Positions 17,624 through 43,373 of a stretch of 64,000 nt of DNA are shown one piece after another. The stretch lies in IMG/VR virus record IMGVR_UViG_3300028591_000005, positions 81,978 through 145,977 of that record. The stretch is one strand, 5' to 3'. Origin of the DNA: a virus. Its lineage: Duplodnaviria; Caudoviricetes. Every line of letters starts with the position of its first letter. Position 1 is the first letter of the stretch. The notes under the pieces were generated by a model, which ran no database searches, was not told the DNA's origin, and was given only the letters and a program-made list of their open reading frames with translations. The translations under genes and the position numbers were made by a program.

Positions 17624-18184
17624 CTAAACCGGTTGACTATTATAATATTTTTTAATTTCATTAATAATATCATCTATTAACCAAAGATGCATATTATTTG
17701 TATCTAATTCGACATGAAATATTATTCCTTTATCCATATCACAAAATTTATTTTTATCATGTCGATGTCCACATAAATTAATTATTTTTGCTTTTAGAGG
17801 TTTATCGTCATCATAATTACTTGTTAAACAAGGATAATGAGATAAATAAAAATGATATTGATTATATTGAAAAAATTGACCTTCAGTTATTTCAACTATA
17901 TTATAACAAGTATTATATAAATTCATACGGACGTCGCTATCATGATTTCCTCTAACTACATGAATATTTCCTTTAAGCTGTTTAATAAGACGAATACCTT
18001 CTTCATTATTGTTAAGCATTAAATCTCCAAGACAATAAACATGGTCATCAGGTTCAACAACAGAATTCCAATTATAGAGAATTGCATTATTCATTTCATA
18101 AACAGAATTAAATCCACGAGGTTCATATATAAATGGTTTATTATGGAATAAATGGAGGTCGCTCGTAATCCATATATCAGACAT
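17624..18184 (-). CDS. calcineurin-like metallophosphoesterase
   Basis: SDLHLFH, LGDL, GNHD, SHYP, GHRH motifs. Confidence 0.9.
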   Translation of the reverse strand: MSDIWITSDLHLFHNKPFIYEPRGFNSVYEMNNAILYNWNSVVEPDDHVYCLGDLMLNNNEEGIRLIKQLKGNIHVVRGNHDSDVRMNLYNTCYNIVEITEGQFFQYNQYHFYLSHYPCLTSNYDDDKPLKAKIINLCGHRHDKNKFCDMDKGIIFHVELDTNNMHLWLIDDIINEIKKYYNSQPV

Positions 18185-18689
18185 TATTATTCTCCTTAAT
18201 TACAATTTCACCATTTGAATATATTACAATAATTTTATCAAAACCCTCATCAAAACTGGGATTTCTAAAATGTTCATACATATTTTCAATTACATCACGA
18301 GGAACGTATGAACGAGTATTTTTTCTTTTTTCATTCTGACGAATACAGGTATCTACTCCATTGCGGAGAACAACAGCAATAACTTCACAATCTTTCAAAC
18401 TATCCCCTAATTTGCGGAGAAGCTTGGTACGAGATCCTGAATTGATATGCGTAGCATCAGCAATGGTGGCTTCCGCATTTTTTAATCCATCTTTTATTTC
18501 ATCAATAAATTTATTAAATACTTCAGTTTCATGCGAGAAGTATTCTTCATCTTCTTTTACTATTGAGAAACGAATATCATCTCTAGATACATATTTCACA
18601 TCGTCGCCGAACATAGTAAGATGATTCTTGCAGAACGTGCTTTTGCCTGTTCCTGGCACTCCACAAATAACGTACAGTTTATTCTTCAT
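18177..18689 (-). CDS. P-loop kinase, polynucleotide kinase-like (AAA_33)
   Basis: GVPGTGKS Walker A, SRDDIR, DATH, RQNEKR lid. Confidence 0.85.
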   Translation of the reverse strand: MKNKLYVICGVPGTGKSTFCKNHLTMFGDDVKYVSRDDIRFSIVKEDEEYFSHETEVFNKFIDEIKDGLKNAEATIADATHINSGSRTKLLRKLGDSLKDCEVIAVVLRNGVDTCIRQNEKRKNTRSYVPRDVIENMYEHFRNPSFDEGFDKIIVIYSNGEIVIKENNNV

Positions 18690-18978
18690 AGATATCAACA
18701 CCTTCTCTCATAAGCTTATCTCTAAGTTGACCATAGGTCATTTTTCTTTGCTGATTTTCGTCAAAATTTCCATATTTAAATTCAATTTGGAAATCTTCTT
18801 TTGTATATTTTGAACCAACTATACATTCAGCATGATTAGTTTCCGCATTACATTTAAGACACCAAAGTTTTTTCAAGTGTCCTGCTCCACGTTCTTTACC
18901 TGTCTGACGAACAACAGGAATACCTTTGCATCCACATTTACAGCAATAAAATTCCTCACCTACAATCAATTTTCCCAT
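18679..18978 (-). CDS. Zn-ribbon hypothetical protein
   Basis: CCKCG and HLKKLWCLKC motifs. Confidence 0.7.
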   Translation of the reverse strand: MGKLIVGEEFYCCKCGCKGIPVVRQTGKERGAGHLKKLWCLKCNAETNHAECIVGSKYTKEDFQIEFKYGNFDENQQRKMTYGQLRDKLMREGVDIYEE

Positions 18979-19178
18979 TAATAAATATCTCCTAATTTAT
19001 TATAAATAGTTGCTCTTAAAGAATTAATATCATTAGAATTTATTCCAAGTGTTTCAGCAGCTTCATCAAGAATTGTTAATGCAAAAGCGAGTCTCATAAC
19101 AGGATTAAAACTCATTATTTTAGTATACATCGCTTCAAAATCATTGAAATATTTTTCTTCAAATTCTTCATAAGTCAT
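18978..19178 (-). CDS. hypothetical protein
   Basis: 66 aa, RBS and promoter upstream. Confidence 0.6.
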   Translation of the reverse strand: MTYEEFEEKYFNDFEAMYTKIMSFNPVMRLAFALTILDEAAETLGINSNDINSLRATIYNKLGDIY

Positions 19179-19299
19179 AATAATATACTCCTTTTTAAAT
19201 AAAATCTTTTTTACTATATATACATTATATAATATTTTTTAAAAAAAGTCAAAAAAGAGCGGCGGTCCAGTCCAAAGAGTCTTGAACCGAGGCCGCCGC

Positions 19300-19527
19300 T
19301 TACATATATTGCTGTATAAATTCTTTAAATTTAATAGCATCTTCGGGATATTCAACTGATATTCCTTGAGATACATCAATTGACATATTACCCATTAATG
19401 ATTTACCATCTACTTTATAAGCTCCTCTTGATACAATTACATCACCATCTACAAAAGAAGCCTGTTGAGTAAATTTGATAATATCATTAATTCCTTGTAA
19501 CGTAATAAAACTTTTAATCATTCCCAT
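19300..19527 (-). CDS. HPr-family phosphocarrier-like protein lacking His15
   Basis: VDGKSLMG matches the HPr Ser46 motif; no histidine in the protein. Confidence 0.75.
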   Translation of the reverse strand: MGMIKSFITLQGINDIIKFTQQASFVDGDVIVSRGAYKVDGKSLMGNMSIDVSQGISVEYPEDAIKFKEFIQQYM

Positions 19528-19552
19528 ATTCTCTTTCCTTTCTTTTGTTTAC

Positions 19553-20239
19553 TTATTCTAACAGCAAACCTCCCCATTGCTCGGCTATAGCTTTAGCAAT
19601 ACCAGGAAAAGTTTTACTTCTTAATTTACTTCTTTCTTCTTTTGATAATTTCCATGCATCAGCATACCATGCCGGCATAGTTTTACCTGAAGCAAACTCT
19701 TTTCTTGCAGGAGGTTCTACTTGATTGGTAGGAGTTAATTTGGGTAAATTCTTCATCCATAAGCAAGTTTTCTTTTCAAAAGGATCACCGAACATATAAG
19801 GCTGAATAATCTGATCAGGTTTGCGGTAATGAGAATTCATATAACCAATAGGATTCTCAATTGCAATTTTATCACAATCCGCATTAACAAAAGCCATAAA
19901 GAATTCTGCTGCTTCTTCTCTATCTTTAATTCTTTTAAGTGCTTTTTCACCATATTTTTCTACATTAAACCAGCGATTACCAGTTACTGTAAGATAGGTA
20001 CATGGCGGATGTGCTATAATTAAATCCCATTTTCCTTCAATTGAATGTTCAGTACCATCAGCAGTAGTAAAGGTACAGTCACCATTTAATAGCGGCAATA
20101 CATCAGACTTAATATGCCATTCAGGATGACCGCCTGAACAATCTATAATATCGCAACTGTATGCTTCCAAACCCAATGCCCGCATTTCAGTTGCTACTGC
20201 TTGTGATTCTTCACATGCTATTAATACATTTTTACCCAT
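19553..20239 (-). CDS. DNA cytosine methyltransferase-like protein (short form)
   Basis: VLIACEESQ SAM-binding variant, DLIIAHPPCTYL (motif IV PC), IAIENP (motif VI). Confidence 0.8.
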   Translation of the reverse strand: MGKNVLIACEESQAVATEMRALGLEAYSCDIIDCSGGHPEWHIKSDVLPLLNGDCTFTTADGTEHSIEGKWDLIIAHPPCTYLTVTGNRWFNVEKYGEKALKRIKDREEAAEFFMAFVNADCDKIAIENPIGYMNSHYRKPDQIIQPYMFGDPFEKKTCLWMKNLPKLTPTNQVEPPARKEFASGKTMPAWYADAWKLSKEERSKLRSKTFPGIAKAIAEQWGGLLLE

Positions 20240-20342
20240 ATAATCTCCTTTTGTTTCATATCACTAATAGGGATAGAAAATAATCTATCCCTATTAGAAT
20301 ATTTAAGTTTTATTTTGGAACATTTTATATCATTTGACCTTA

Positions 20343-21590
20343 TCATCCATGATACTTGATAAGGAATTCATTAGACACAGCCTTGAAGCTCTGAACTCCG
20401 TCTACAGATCTGAATACAAGACCTTCTCTCATACCACCATCTATAGCAGACTTATCAGTTGCTATCTCAAGAAGCTCTTCAACAGTATCGGGAAGTATGA
20501 AATGCTCATCTACTATTGGTACGCAAGGAACATCATATTGCACCATAAGGTCAGTCATCTCTCTAGGATTCAGTCTCTTTCTTCTACCATCCTTGTATCC
20601 AACAATTACATTGAATACAGCGAGGTCATGCTCCTTAAGAGAATAATCTCTCTTCTGAACACCTTCACCATAAGTCTCGCCCTGAACAGTAACAAAATCA
20701 ATATTTCCTTCGGTATTCTCGAAGTACTCCATAAGCATTGAAAGTACATCTTCCATATGATATTTTTCTGCCATTTCAACATATACATTAGTATCATAAT
20801 AGCACTGCTTGTCAGGTCTATCAAATACAACATTTCTTGAGCAAACGAAGAACTGTCTCTTTCTTCCCCAACCTCTCATAGTGAAAGTAGTTGAAGTTCC
20901 ATCTATCTTTTCAGTTGCAAACCACTCGGATTTGTCCTTGAGGATTTGAGGCATATTCTGGACTCTTTCCTCGTCAGTCTTTACAACCCATGAAGGCCAG
21001 GTTTTAACATCTTTCTTCTTGCCAAACAGAAGAAGGAATATCTTTCTTGCCCACTTATGTTTCTTTATAAATCTACCAAACTTTCTTGCTATCCAGGGAT
21101 GTCTAGTAAATGCAGCATTTATTCTAGCATCAGGATTGGGCTTACCCTTTCTCTTCTGATCTTCAGGCTCATAATAAGTTACACTAAGTTGCTGAGTAAG
21201 GAAAGCAGATTCAGTTCCAGGGCGATATTGATGACCTTCCTTATCATATATGTAATTAAACTCATCAGTATAAGCAACAAACCAACCAAAATCTGCGGCA
21301 GGCATAAGAAGCCCCTGAGACCAGAACTGTCCGTCAGGAGTCTTAAACTTCTGAGTCTTGATATGTCCCTTATATTTCTTACAAAATTCAAATATAGGGT
21401 TATCAAGCGGAACCTGGCTATCTATTTCAAAATATATTCCAGGGTCGCCTGCCTTAAATGCGCCCTTTGGAACCATACAAGTCCATCCACCAACCCTTGC
21501 ACATTCAACTCTATCCTTACCTGCTATAGGCTCTACTGAATCAACAGTAACGACATAAGCAAGTTCTCTTATTCCATCCTTATTAAGCAT
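20343..21590 (-). CDS. ATP-dependent RNA ligase (Rnl2/DRB0094-like)
   Basis: N-terminal OB-like domain, KTDEERVQN, motif I EKIDG, CSRN, QGETYG, FNV, EGLV, FKAVS. Confidence 0.9.
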   Translation of the reverse strand: MLNKDGIRELAYVVTVDSVEPIAGKDRVECARVGGWTCMVPKGAFKAGDPGIYFEIDSQVPLDNPIFEFCKKYKGHIKTQKFKTPDGQFWSQGLLMPAADFGWFVAYTDEFNYIYDKEGHQYRPGTESAFLTQQLSVTYYEPEDQKRKGKPNPDARINAAFTRHPWIARKFGRFIKKHKWARKIFLLLFGKKKDVKTWPSWVVKTDEERVQNMPQILKDKSEWFATEKIDGTSTTFTMRGWGRKRQFFVCSRNVVFDRPDKQCYYDTNVYVEMAEKYHMEDVLSMLMEYFENTEGNIDFVTVQGETYGEGVQKRDYSLKEHDLAVFNVIVGYKDGRRKRLNPREMTDLMVQYDVPCVPIVDEHFILPDTVEELLEIATDKSAIDGGMREGLVFRSVDGVQSFKAVSNEFLIKYHG

Positions 21591-39372: not shown

Positions 39373-39514
39373 TAAGTTTCATGATGTCTCTACCAAGGGG
39401 AAACTTACAAAAACCTCCGACCTCTTTGCGATTTTTAAAAACAAAGATAAGTTTTATGATGTCTGTACCAAGGAAAAACTTATAAAAACCTCCGACGCTC
39501 CGAGGATTTTAAAA
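39373..39514 (-). repeat. tandem pair of ~67-nt two-hairpin elements (probable ncRNA)
   Basis: Copies at 39373-39440 and 39448-39514 share GTCGGAGGTTTTT, TAAGTTT/AAACTTA stem and CCTTGGTASAGACATCAT. Confidence 0.7.
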
Positions 39515-39688
39515 TATGGATTTACTCAACCTGTTTATATTATACTCGTCTCTGCTTTCAGAAATCCACAAACCCTGTTTTGACGAGTCCTCGATAGTCT
39601 GCTCATGTTGGCTGCCCTTTTCCAACACCTCTTGTTCTCTATAACAAGCGAGATACTTTCTCCAATGAGTTATCTACCCTTGAGGAAA

Positions 39689-39760
39689 TGACTCTGCCAG
39701 GATTCGAACCTGGGTCCCGACCGTGAGAGGGTCGCGTCTTAACCTCTTGACTACAGAGCC
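39689..39760 (-). tRNA. tRNA-Glu(CTC)
   Basis: CGACC-CT-CTC-AC-GGTCG, canonical arms. Confidence 0.93.
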
Positions 39761-39974
39761 ATAAGGAGAAAGGAAGAGTTGTAGATGACTGTCTACCTCT
39801 TTCTGTAAGGATTTACGGCTCTTAACCGACCTAACTTTCCCCGCGGTTTGCTTTATTGTAGTACGTGTAATCAAACCCGTAATGGAAACACGGTTCTTTT
39901 TAGGTGGTTGTCTCCACCAAATTTATTTCTTTCTTAACTTTCTATAAATATTATAACAAATATTTTTTAAAAAA

Positions 39975-40208
39975 TCAAGTAAGATTTTTTACCTGCTTAT
40001 ACATTGTTTCTAATATACTTAATGATTTATTAATTTCAATACAGGCTTCTTCATCATCGAAACCTTTTTTCTTTTGCCAATCTGACCATTTTTTAGGTAT
40101 CTCAAGACCAAAAATAAAATGTCCTTGAACATCATTTAAAGCAACGATACCTTTATTTAAGGCATTAAGAACATCATCTTTATTATTATCATTGATTTCA
40201 ATAATCAT
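39975..40208 (-). CDS. hypothetical protein
   Basis: 77 aa cassette with own promoter and RBS. Confidence 0.65.
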   Translation of the reverse strand: MIIEINDNNKDDVLNALNKGIVALNDVQGHFIFGLEIPKKWSDWQKKKGFDDEEACIEINKSLSILETMYKQVKNLT

Positions 40209-40273
40209 TTTATTCTCCTTAACTTTTCTATAAATATTATAACAAAAATTTATAAAAAAATCAAAAAAGAATT

Positions 40274-40723
40274 TTAAATCCCGCCTTGTACATTATAATC
40301 TTTAGTACATTCAATTGTGTATGAAATTGCTGTTATAGTCTCTGGATTATCGCAAACAATTTCAAGTAATGTGTCATACTGATCAAAACTTGTATAAGCA
40401 TTAGCATGAGATTGTCTTGTAAGTACTACTGTAGCGCCCATGACATTAACATCAAATCCTTCAAATTTTGCACTCCGCACTATATCATTAAACATAATAG
40501 TAACAGTAGATGCTGTTGAAATATGAACAGCATTAGGATGAGTTGCATGAACTCTAAACTTAGCAATATTCTCATGTGCTATAACTTGTTCTTTTGTTAT
40601 ATTAATAGTCCAACATTCATCCTGTTTTTCTGTGTGATTATCAATAATATCACCACTTGCAGCATAAATACCTTCTGCTATATCCTCTAATTCAAGAACT
40701 AGAGGTTTAATGTATTCTCCCAT
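40274..40723 (-). CDS. hypothetical protein with YxKP..AEGIYAASG leader-like N-terminus
   Basis: AGGAGG RBS; N-terminal YIKPLVLELEDIAEGIYAASG followed by a beta-rich domain. Confidence 0.65.
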   Translation of the reverse strand: MGEYIKPLVLELEDIAEGIYAASGDIIDNHTEKQDECWTINITKEQVIAHENIAKFRVHATHPNAVHISTASTVTIMFNDIVRSAKFEGFDVNVMGATVVLTRQSHANAYTSFDQYDTLLEIVCDNPETITAISYTIECTKDYNVQGGI

Positions 40724-40754
40724 AAAAATCATACCTCCTTATAAAAAATAAAAA

Positions 40755-40827
40755 TGCTAATGAATGGACTTGAACCACTGACTTCCACCTTATCAGAGTG
40801 GCGTTCTTCCTACTGAACTACATTAGC
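40755..40827 (-). tRNA. tRNA-Ile(GAT)
   Basis: GCTAATG/CATTAGC, CCACT-CT-GAT-AA-GGTGG. Confidence 0.92.
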
Positions 40828-40926
40828 ATATGCCTGAGCTTTGTCGCCAGGGCATCAGGCACCCCCGAATTACGGTAATAGCTTATCAACCGTACATGTA
40901 GGCTTCGCCTAAGCCCTCATGCGGAG

Positions 40927-40998
40927 TGGAGCTTGGCGGTTATGCTCCGCCTACTCATCCTTGCAAGGGATGTGTGTTCCTGACTATACCAAAGCCCC
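40927..40998 (-). tRNA. tRNA-Ala(TGC), atypical T loop
   Basis: GGGGCTT/AAGCTCC with G3:U70, CATCC-CT-TGC-AA-GGATG, T loop AGCATAA. Confidence 0.8.
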
Positions 40999-41277
40999 AT
41001 ATTGGTTTTTATCCACATATGCCTGGAACCATAACCAAACATATATGAGGTTAAAGACTTTACCAAGCTTTATTCACTCTCATTCGTATATTTTAGCGAC
41101 GTCTTTAATTCAGGTTCTCGTCCATAGCAGTGAGGAGCTATAATACTCAACAATCTCTGCCTTACGCCCTTCTTCGTCATAGGGTGACCTATGGGATTCT
41201 CGTTCTCATAGCAACGCCTGCTCCAAAGAGCAGGAAAACGACTACTGCGGGGATCGAACCCGCGACCTCGGCAGTGA

Positions 41278-42125
41278 ATGCTCGAAACAAGTTACGACCT
41301 TATATTTTAGACCATTCTTCTTCAGAATATTTATTAATTTCTGTTTTTTTACGAGGTAATCCGAATTTATCACACCATTTTCGGATAGCATTATCAGAAA
41401 CTCCATATTTAGTTCCAATTGTTGTAAATGGAACAGTTCTGATAAGATTTTTTAATTCTTCTCTTGTAATAGGCATTTTATCTTCAGGAATAATTCTATT
41501 TTTAGCAGAACATTCTGCACATCTTGTTGATGTTCTAAAAATTTCTTTTCCACAATCTATACAATAAAATTTTTTTGCAAAAATTTTTCTTTGTGGATTC
41601 CTACTACCTGTTGTTTCTAATTGTTGATTACAATTAGGACATACCCATCTTAAATTTTCTAATCTGTCATCATTATTAATACCATTGATATGGTCAAGTA
41701 TAAGAGTCAATTCTTTACCTTGCCATATTGGCTCTTGTCCACAGATAGAACATTTATATTCAGAGCAAGAATTTTTTATATATAATTTTCGTAAAGTATG
41801 TTGACTTGCTGTAGAATCTTGTATAAAAGTATTCTCCGGAGTCCTAATTACTCCTGTTCTAATACTCTTTTGAAAATGAGAAGTATCATAATTACTTAAT
41901 TTTTCTTCTAACATTTTAAGAGTATCTCCAGATGGAGAATTACTATATCCAATTTTTCTAGCAAAATCTTTAAAAGAAACAGAAATTTTTACAATATTTT
42001 CTATTTCTGAAGATGAATAATTTTCAAAATATCCCATAAAGACTCCTTTCTTATAAGATATATGAAAATAAGTTCAACTTCTTGAACTCGACTCGTCCAA
42101 AGTTTTACATTTAAACTATTCGAAC
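41278..42125 (-). mobile_element. tRNA-shaped intron carrying an HNH endonuclease
   Basis: Ends fold as acceptor GTTCGAA/TTCGAGC, D arm GTTT-AAATGTA-AAAC, stem TTGGAC/GTCTAA, T arm ATAAG-GTCGTAA-CTTGT; ORF inside. Confidence 0.75.
41300..42037 (-). CDS. HNH homing endonuclease
   Basis: CSICG..LILDHINGINNDDRLENLRWVCPNCN; Zn ribbon and C-terminal HTH (YGVSDNAIRKW); AAGGAG RBS. Confidence 0.92.
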   Translation of the reverse strand: MGYFENYSSSEIENIVKISVSFKDFARKIGYSNSPSGDTLKMLEEKLSNYDTSHFQKSIRTGVIRTPENTFIQDSTASQHTLRKLYIKNSCSEYKCSICGQEPIWQGKELTLILDHINGINNDDRLENLRWVCPNCNQQLETTGSRNPQRKIFAKKFYCIDCGKEIFRTSTRCAECSAKNRIIPEDKMPITREELKNLIRTVPFTTIGTKYGVSDNAIRKWCDKFGLPRKKTEINKYSEEEWSKI

Positions 42126-42270
42126 CAGTGCCGTATTCTAACCAAACTGAACTAAGTAGCCAAAACAATAGCAATACCGAGTAAGATGTCAAATCTCCTT
42201 TTTATAGTGATTGGATCCACTTGTGTTCTTACTATATCGGCTTTATTCTCTTCTAAATTGCTATTGTAAA

Positions 42271-42342
42271 ATGGAATGACAGGACTCGAACCTATGCATA
42301 GCGATTTTTCCATCGCCGCTCTACCAACTGAGCTACATTCCG
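42271..42342 (-). pseudogene. tRNA-Phe-like with 6-nt anticodon loop
   Basis: Canonical D and T arms; GCGAT-GGAAAA-ATCGC lacks U33. Confidence 0.6.
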
Positions 42343-42700
42343 TAATCGGTTTAACGCTCTGTACGATTCCCCTATTTAACTTCGGGACAGCTCCACATCT
42401 GTTATTTAAACTCTCTAGTGGGGAGAGTATAGTTCATGAACCGGTTGAACTTGGGTCGCACGAGGTGTCAACCAAACCCCGCCGTTTGCAAACTAGTGAT
42501 TATTTTTTTAGTTCATCACCACCGAACACTTCTCACATAGCGAAGTAAATGGATAAGGATTTCATCGCCTTATACAGATATTGGTATGTTCTTTCTCGTA
42601 AAACTCCAACATCAAAACCGACCTGTTTTTTTTAAAATCTTATTGGATAACAGGTAACCTCACCGATACAGTCGTCGCTCACGAGACCTCGTTATACATA

Positions 42701-42770
42701 GCATCGGAGCAAGGGTTCTCACCTGCATTTTCTGCCAAGACAGAGGTTTGTATCTTAACCTATCCGGTGC
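42701..42770 (-). ncRNA. degenerate tRNA-like cloverleaf
   Basis: GCACCGGA/TCCGATGC, TA, GGTT/AACC, TCTG/CAGA with short loop, GCAGG-TGAGAAC-CCTTGC. Confidence 0.5.
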
Positions 42771-42837
42771 CTAACGAGCGCGGAGCCTCATCTCCGCCTG
42801 TCATATCCTGTCAATTCAGGCATTACTTCGGTTGAAA

Positions 42838-42968
42838 CGGGAATCCGAGGACTCGAACCTCGATACTACGCTTAATGGATAAATGAGTACTGCCCTCAAA
42901 TCCTTGACAGTGTTTTCTTTAAACTATTATCCCACAGGCGTATGTCCTAACCTTTGGACGAGAAACCC
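42838..42968 (-). tRNA. tRNA-Asn(GTT) split by a 59-nt tRNA-shaped insert
   Basis: Removing 42876-42934 gives TACGC-CT-GTT-AA-GCGTA; G73; acceptor has two mismatches. Confidence 0.78.
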
Positions 42969-43373
42969 AAATCACGGGAGCCCATCCCCGCATTCTCACA
43001 CAGAGCATTCTCTGGTCGGGCATATTGAAAGGGAGGTGTGATTTATATACAAAAGAAAGGGAAAACCTTAAAGGATAATGTAGGAACATTTCATATCCCT
43101 TTCTTTATTGTAAATATATTATAACAAAAATTTTTTTAAAAGTCAAATGGTTATTTTTTATTGTACAAAAAACAACCAAAAAACTAAACCCCGATGACGC
43201 TCACAGGTGGTAGCCGCAACTACTATGAATAGAAGAAAATGAAAATAAGATTTTTCTTTTTGTACTTTTCACTTTCTATAAATATTATAACAAAAATTTT
43301 GTTATAAATCAAATGATGATTTTGTATTTTATATAAAAAATACTTTTATTAGAATTTTATCGCTTGCCCAAGA

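Follow-up and report, generated by a model that had tools for sequence, protein, structure and literature searches.

A tRNA-shaped insert in the anticodon loop of a phage tRNA-Asn gene as a candidate intron of a distinct kind

The sole tRNA-Asn gene in the complete 146-kb genome of a sheep-rumen phage is split within its anticodon by a 59-nt insert (42875–42933, minus strand) that is itself built like a miniature tRNA. It belongs to a group of 18 non-redundant inserts in the tRNA-Asp, tRNA-Glu and tRNA-Asn genes of related rumen and gut phages, and we are highly confident that this group is a real structural family of tRNA-shaped introns. From comparative evidence we propose, at a probability of about one half, that the insert is an intron of a distinct kind: a tRNA mimic that would be excised by the tRNA-end enzymes of the host, the exons being resealed by an RNA ligase.

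Coordinates below refer to the window, that is, the whole 64-kb stretch of DNA analyzed, which is the right-hand part of the genome (direct terminal repeats are present) and carries a minus-strand tRNA array at ~27.5–43 kb. DNA of this phage also turns up in metagenomes from sheep and other ruminant guts; a blastn search of GenBank phages with the region gave no match, and a scan with ATAGTTTAAAGAAAACACTG found no identical copy. Without its intron option ARAGORN called no tRNA at 42838–42968; with introns allowed, it called a minus-strand tRNA-Asn(GTT) at 42837–42969 whose intron measures 59 nt and, elsewhere, tRNA-Asp(GTC) interrupted by an intron of 848 nt and two tRNAs that each have an insert of 45 nt. 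A preliminary description of this DNA had held that a 59-nt insert splits the anticodon and that its removal restores the tRNA, and both this call and the sequence bear it out: tRNA-Asn(GUU) is complete once 42875–42933 is removed. Exon 1 (42934–42968, minus strand; nucleotides 1–35) provides the acceptor 5' strand, the D arm, the anticodon stem 5' strand and C-U-G34-U35, ending in TACGC-CTGT, while exon 2 (42838–42874, minus strand) starts with TAA-GCGTA and provides U36-A37-A38, the anticodon stem 3' strand, the variable loop, the T arm, the acceptor 3' strand and G73, after which no CCA is encoded. These assignments come from ARAGORN (-i), the sequence and alignment with an intron-less relative on a related metagenome contig (L162:541-613), and for exon 2 also from a survey of encoded CCA ends. 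The predicted spliced junction reads ...TACGCCTGT/TAAGCGTAG, and because T flanks both junctions it can be slid by one base, the slid insert being 42876–42934. The tRNA-Asp gene is likewise single in the genome according to ARAGORN.

Judged by comparison with the intron-less relative, the tRNA-Asn exons form a sound tRNA that evolved under selection. The spliced form is ~82% identical to L162:541-613, and the differences include four fully compensatory pair changes (6-67, 7-66, 31-39 and 51-63) and none that disrupts a stem. Two acceptor mismatches had earlier raised the worry of a pseudogene; both (U4.U69 and U5.U68) also occur in the intact relative and are therefore a trait of this tRNA-Asn lineage, not decay, so that this worry falls away. 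The broader notion of a decayed pseudogene whose insert folds like a tRNA by chance could further appeal to the unremarkable folding energy of the insert (z = -1.06) and to its Rfam tRNA score (21.4 bits vs. a threshold of 29), yet it is contradicted by covariation in both exons and insert and by a homologous insert that another phage has at this site, and we judge it exceedingly improbable. That match was the only one to the Rfam tRNA model (RF00005), and it is a chimera joining the 5' half of the insert to the host T arm, which means that the insert begins like a tRNA. A search of viral contigs with the spliced-junction 17-mer returned only unrelated tRNA-Asn genes with the same anticodon arm, and no near-identical intron-less allele.

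The insert runs, in order, through G1, a closing stem GGATAA/TTATCC resembling an acceptor stem (5' strand 42927–42932, minus strand, pairing with 42877–42882), TA, a D-like arm (GTTT/AAAGA/AAAC; 42912–42924, minus strand), a 13-nt linker, a T-like arm (TGAG/GGCAGTA/CTCA; 42884–42898, minus strand) and an A-T tail. All stems given in the preliminary description are present, the linker being 13 nt where a 12-nt stub had been counted. G at 42933 faces A at 42876 in a G.A layer, the first T layer is U.U, and the 3' tail is T (or AT). Two further likenesses that had been pointed out hold as well: the D arm is almost the same as in the tRNA-Asp insert of 848 nt (TAGTTTAAATGTAAAAC), and the T arm resembles that of the phage tRNA-Gly (GGCAGAA loop, 38500–38519). 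Taken together with the preceding GGAT, the T arm is most like that of the phage's own tRNA-Gly. The unusual T loop GGCAGNA, instead of TTCRANT, occurs in tRNA or tRNA-like genes at 38491–38562 (minus strand), L013:2909-2979 and L165:3299-3373.

As a tRNA gene in its own right the insert fails, with the linker replacing the anticodon arm and the RF00005 score falling below threshold; as a tRNA mimic it interrupts the anticodon loop of a tRNA that is intact elsewhere, and it has the mini-tRNA layout, with the closing stem at the 5' junction followed by TA, the D arm and an abutting T stem. We discarded folding energy as evidence for this structure, since its z-score is not significant; the proposed fold has -7.8 kcal/mol vs. 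-10.2 kcal/mol for the minimum free energy structure, which favors a different inner hairpin. Unremarkable folding energy is common among AT-rich tRNA-like RNAs.

Most closely related to the insert is one of 65 nt, also ORF-less, which occupies the same position of a tRNA-Asn gene in another phage (L020:2529-2593). The two differ by six double-sided changes that keep all three stems, namely four of the six closing-stem pairs, one pair of the D arm (GTAT/ATAC in the relative) and one of the T arm (TAAG/CTTA), and the G1.A72 and U49.U65 layers are also kept. This relative was the best non-self match of a covariance model built from the tRNA-Asn insert (E = 0.003 over 97 kb), although a single-sequence model is too specific for a family search and found it only with filters off. 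An exact-motif scan of viral contigs with TAAGTGCAAGNCTTA gave mostly chance matches, and most of what a first, loose descriptor scan returned was ordinary tRNAs. The covariance-model search recovered L020, and a descriptor scan followed by hand filtering, in which C at the third T-loop base was among the scan criteria, brought the number of members inside Asp, Glu and Asn anticodon loops to 18. Among these, ARAGORN calls of "Ala(GGC)", "Gln(UUG)" and "SeC(UCA)" were reread as Asp(GUC) and Glu(UUC/CUC) because the 5' junction is placed before nucleotide 1; to the eye, the Glu-like D arms of the host tRNAs agree with the Glu rereading.

All 18 members follow a common plan: the host anticodon stem and 3–5 loop nucleotides, a 7-layer acceptor-like stem, TA, a 4-bp D arm (mostly GTTT/AAAC), then an HNH gene or, in its place, a short linker, a T stem of 5 layers closing a 7-nt loop, the 3' strand of the acceptor-like stem, a 1–4-nt tail, and the remaining host anticodon loop. 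In the T loop, every one of them has C as the third base and a purine as the fourth. Stem cells are paired in 98.6% of cases, a fraction that is partly circular because pairing was required for the selection of members. Less affected by this is the count of double-sided changes, which were found in 13 of the 16 stem pairs vs. 4.9 ± 1.2 in shuffled data (2000 shuffles, all below 13). These comparisons support the earlier claim of a selected tRNA-like structure, and by this covariation the insert is not a chance fold.

In most family members an HNH gene takes the place of the anticodon arm. The sister element in tRNA-Asp(GUC), 848 nt long (41278–42125, minus strand), has its ORF at 41300–42037, where the anticodon loop would be, and the product is a 245-aa HNH endonuclease. 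Genes for relatives of this protein lie in the tRNA arrays of IMG/VR phages (90–190 kb) and of contigs from rumen and gut metagenomes, many of them within an anticodon loop, and in several ORF-bearing members the gene is immediately preceded by a promoter-like sequence. Members without an ORF are those in tRNA-Asn (the phage copy and L020), in tRNA-Glu (L188:4145-4231) and in L176 and L216. Because these copies keep the scaffold, its role cannot be solely endonuclease expression. The tRNA-Asn copy had been read in the preliminary description as the minimal form left after endonuclease loss. From its sequence this fits the family, where ORF-less forms occur in at least three settings and L188:4145-4231 retains a recognizable ORF end; what did not hold is a trace of the gene in the copy itself. 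Its 13-nt linker looked suggestively like an HNH gene end, by eye and in a model alignment, but after comparison with shuffles this likeness was no better than random for the tRNA-Asn copy and L020, and clear for L188 only. Other ORF-bearing inserts in the anticodon loops of related phages, of 465–672 nt (L151:4972-5512, L151:6685-7426, L173:958-1700 and L179:1134-1881), have a plain closing helix, no tRNA-like scaffold, and too little sequence beside the ORF for a ribozyme.

The ends of the family members fall where tRNA-end enzymes would be expected to cut. In all 18, nucleotide 1 of the acceptor-like stem follows immediately on the 5' junction, and this nucleotide is G in 17; the place at which the host loop is interrupted varies (34/35, 35/36 or 36/37). 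The two inserts of this phage had been said to share one anticodon position, which is so only if the tRNA-Asn junction is slid by one; by mini-tRNA boundaries the Asp insert follows nucleotide 34 and the Asn insert nucleotide 35. On sequence grounds the 5' junction would correspond to the RNase P cleavage position on a tRNA. Bacterial RNase P requires a 12-layer acceptor/T helix with a T loop, and the family geometry would suit it, with a 7-layer acceptor plus 5-layer T stem, a 7-nt T loop with C3, and a G in the D loop. In the tRNA-Asn insert the predicted determinants for RNase P and RNase Z are present, namely the 12-layer helix, the T loop, G+1 and U-1.

At the 3' side, tail length goes with whether the tRNA genes of the phage itself carry CCA. 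The tail has 4 nt (ACCA in five, TCCA, ACAA and GCAA) at all eight loci with CCA-encoding tRNA genes, and 1–2 nt (T, AT, AA, TA or CT) in all eight genomes without them, a complete split for which a Fisher-type count gives ~1 in 13,000, relatedness not being corrected for. The split is seen even within one lineage, where L154 has ACCA vs. AA or AT in its near-identical sisters L001, L150 and the Asp intron of this phage. CCA is encoded in none of the 19 scored tRNA genes of the phage genome, and the tail of the tRNA-Asn insert matches this style. On precursors without CCA, RNase Z enzymes make their cut behind the discriminator, and on those with CCA, behind the CCA (PMC7479834; PMC1540738), so the tail-length pattern is that which would be expected of RNase Z. 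The fit is not exact: the 2-nt tails (AT, AA, TA and CT) of Asp and some Glu members are 1 nt longer than a post-discriminator cut predicts, and the tRNA-Asn copy fits such a cut only if its G1.A72 layer is counted as a pair.

We accordingly picture the following course only as a proposal. The ancestor would have been a mobile element made of the tRNA-shaped scaffold and an HNH homing endonuclease gene in the place of the anticodon loop; in the tRNA-Asn copy the gene would have been lost and the scaffold kept. Insert and host tRNA body would each fold on their own within the precursor. Host RNase P would cut before G1 of the insert, leaving a 3'-OH on exon 1, and host RNase Z would cut past its discriminator-like tail, leaving a 5'-phosphate on exon 2. 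The tRNA body would then hold the exon ends together for sealing by an ATP-dependent RNA ligase, most simply one encoded by the phage. Ligases of this kind join 3'-OH and 5'-phosphate ends without prior healing. Each enzymatic step we infer from what is observed, namely the architecture, the covariation, the end positions and a ligase gene.

Restoration of a gene when an insert is removed is expected of any DNA insertion and is no proof of RNA splicing. The insert might thus be selfish DNA that is never spliced out, with the tRNA halves lost and the phage relying on the tRNA-Asn of its host; host enzymes may even cut the scaffold, for example freeing an endonuclease mRNA or a decoy tRNA-like small RNA. 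Phage tRNAs are often dispensable. Contigs assembled from three sheep-rumen metatranscriptome runs and one DNA run, for window 38000–43100, contain no 42875/42933 joint, and none of them spans tRNA-Asn. Related endonuclease genes also occur beside tRNA genes or in truncated tRNA copies that have no scaffold (L005, L011 and L020/L022), and the phage has a Ro60-like gene and other tRNA-like RNAs, so that tRNA mimics may have roles of their own. We nonetheless consider selfish DNA unlikely: the tRNA-Asn exons keep every stem through the four compensatory changes noted above, tRNA-Asn and tRNA-Asp have no second copy in the genome, and ORF-less copies, which have no mRNA to free, still keep the scaffold.

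The Ro60-like gene (DUF2828/vWA; 36504–37970, minus strand) adjoins a tRNA-like gene at 38156–38272 (minus strand) with a 45–46-nt insert containing ACAGCAA in its anticodon arm. There is a weak match to the Rfam family YrlA (Y RNA-like) at 38217–38339 (E = 0.044), inserts of the ACAGCAA type are also found in tRNA-like genes of L226, L178, L186 and L219, and this is probably a phage Ro/Y-RNA module. An insert of another type lies in tRNA-Leu(UAA) (38568–38696, minus strand), whose anticodon loop contains a 45-nt hairpin with neither D nor T arm; a similar 41-nt insert is present at L162:5531-5657. The noncoding stretch between two tRNA-Glu genes at 39368–39709 had RNA contig coverage in all three RNA runs. 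At 42270–42343 (minus strand) lies a tRNA with an 8-nt anticodon loop, for which the ARAGORN reading is a four-base anticodon GAAA (Phe-like).

For the sealing step the phage offers a candidate enzyme, an RNA ligase (20343–21590, minus strand) with an N-terminal OB fold and an RNA_ligase nucleotidyltransferase domain (PF09414, 2.5e–20; PF21189, 1e–15; phrog_968, 1e–63), although, as a point against this role, its domain order resembles that of nick-sealing RNA ligases. Within the same minus-strand set (17624–21590) are two predicted RNA end-healing enzymes recognized by domain matches, a metallophosphoesterase (17624–18184) and a P-loop polynucleotide kinase (18177–18701). There was no match to RtcB in the phage, nor to a T4 Rnl1-type ligase in a search run without a positive control. 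A ligase-family match was found in five of the five intron-bearing relatives searched vs. two of four comparison phages (introns elsewhere in these four were unchecked); with two of the four matching and so small a sample, we dropped ligase presence as a discriminator.

This complete heal-and-seal set also suggests another course, in which a dedicated phage factor not yet recognized, either an endonuclease or a trans-acting RNA, would read the tRNA shape and leave 2',3'-cyclic phosphate and 5'-OH ends, to be healed by the kinase and phosphoesterase and sealed by the ligase in the manner of T4. The kinase and phosphoesterase would be needless after cuts by RNase P and RNase Z, the 2-nt tails misfit a strict RNase Z cut, and many nearby ORFs belong to no known family. 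On the other side, we found no candidate enzyme and no EndA-type domain, tail length goes with the encoding of CCA, which indicates the general machinery for tRNA 3' ends, and many phages have heal-and-seal sets for another purpose, to counter anticodon nucleases (PMC7824862). A neighboring RNA also fails as the factor, having no DNA-level counterpart in five related phage records. Such a dedicated factor seems to us improbable, slightly more so than unspliced selfish DNA, and excision by RNase P and RNase Z remains the reading that we prefer.

That neighboring RNA, of ~490 nt (42327–42820, minus strand), lies between tRNA-Asn and the next tRNA, and its stretch is covered exactly by whole contigs in three sheep-gut metatranscriptome runs (two samples from two studies), with the highest depths of the region. 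It matches no Rfam family, and variants exist in which 42688–42784 is replaced by 38 other letters. As a shared splicing factor it was rejected on the lack of counterparts just given.

Removal by an RNA catalyst was also considered. A group I intron is ruled out, because 59 nt compares with a usual core (P3–P9) of at least 200 nt and there is no terminal G; the group I end rule (a U-ending 5' exon and a G-ending intron) is broken by an intron that ends in T, or in A if slid, and RF00028 had no match in the window region, or in the whole genome at E ≤ 1. A tiny ribozyme that splices or cleaves itself would accord with the statement in one review that the bacterial tRNA introns characterized so far all self-splice (PMC3984707). 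We regard it as very improbable given the length of only 59 nt and the lack of an Rfam match to group I introns or any ribozyme family. T loops vary freely among members (GGCAGTA, TGCAAGA, GTCGTAA and TTCAAAT), and since unpaired nucleotides vary in this way there is no conserved catalytic core; moreover, the last intron nucleotide is not G, and that of the 5' exon may be U, G or C, depending on the member. A bulge-helix-bulge intron is ruled out as well, since, as read from the sequence, the junctions have no 3-4-3 arrangement and are instead surrounded by a 5-bp anticodon stem, a roughly symmetric internal loop with CUGU(G) opposite AUUAA, and a 6-bp closing stem. EndA (PF01974) had no match in the complete phage genome in a search where archaeal controls matched.

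If the proposed splicing by RNase P, RNase Z and ligase is true, a selfish element has been made harmless in a new way, by posing as a tRNA, and is removed by the universal tRNA-end enzymes, phage RNA ligases gain a role beyond the repair of nuclease damage, and functional phage tRNAs (here Asn, Asp and Leu) go unnoticed by the usual tRNA-finding programs. Among natural substrates for a test, the ORF-less copy of 59 nt is the smallest, within a 131-nt transcript. Because the element runs from nucleotide 1 to N73 or CCA, as a mature tRNA does, spread at the RNA level is conceivable: where a defense nuclease has broken an anticodon loop, a repair ligase could join a free mini-tRNA into the gap.

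To our knowledge, two kinds of tRNA intron have been described: group I introns that splice themselves (bacteria, organelles and phages) and bulge-helix-bulge introns cut by a dedicated endonuclease (archaea and eukaryotes). We tentatively suggest, with less assurance than for the tRNA-Asn intron itself, that the present family is a third class, the first in bacteria or phages to depend on outside enzymes, with excision by RNase P and RNase Z, rejoining by a ligase, and possibly spread at the RNA level. Like the group I introns of bacterial and phage tRNA anticodon loops, which are mobile and often have a losable homing endonuclease gene (PMC3984707), these elements share the anticodon-loop site, the mobility and the losable gene. 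Unlike them, the tRNA-Asn insert has no ribozyme core or terminal G, the 5' splice site does not always follow U, and the scaffold is a tRNA mimic; with such a scaffold in place of a ribozyme core, removal must rely on outside enzymes. Archaeal and eukaryotic tRNA introns, in which a bulge-helix-bulge is cut by the splicing endonuclease and the exons are sealed by a ligase (PMC4090602), are likewise short, without ribozyme activity, and in or next to the anticodon, and some archaeal ones contain homing endonuclease genes; the phage introns differ in having no bulge-helix-bulge, in their positions (34/35–36/37 and not 37/38), in the absence of EndA and in their bacterial setting.

The mimicry itself has parallels in mascRNA (MALAT1, Rfam RF01684) and the YrlA Y RNAs, which also combine acceptor, T and D arms without a decoding anticodon as a handle for tRNA-end enzymes, but these are 3'-end or stand-alone modules outside tRNAs, and their flanks are not rejoined. 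The sealing would be analogous to T4 repair, where phage ligase, kinase and phosphatase act on anticodon-loop breaks of tRNA (the PrrC break, Pnkp and Rnl1), except that the T4 break is made by a host defense nuclease and not by excision of an insert. T4 SegB (PMC13096335) likewise colonizes a phage tRNA array, as a free-standing homing endonuclease gene between tRNA genes and not inside one. We found no published description of a tRNA-shaped intron family or of its mechanism; the nearest are the 'enigmatic' tRNA introns of Lak megaphages, for which no mechanism was given (Devoto et al. 2019, PMC6784885; preprint 10.1101/356790). The Lak report has no family, covariation, endonuclease link or junction rule. 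By their description, its introns are like the tRNA-Asn intron in lying in phage tRNA genes, in having alleles with and without the intron, and in their animal and human gut setting, and the splicing proposed here, if true, would explain them.
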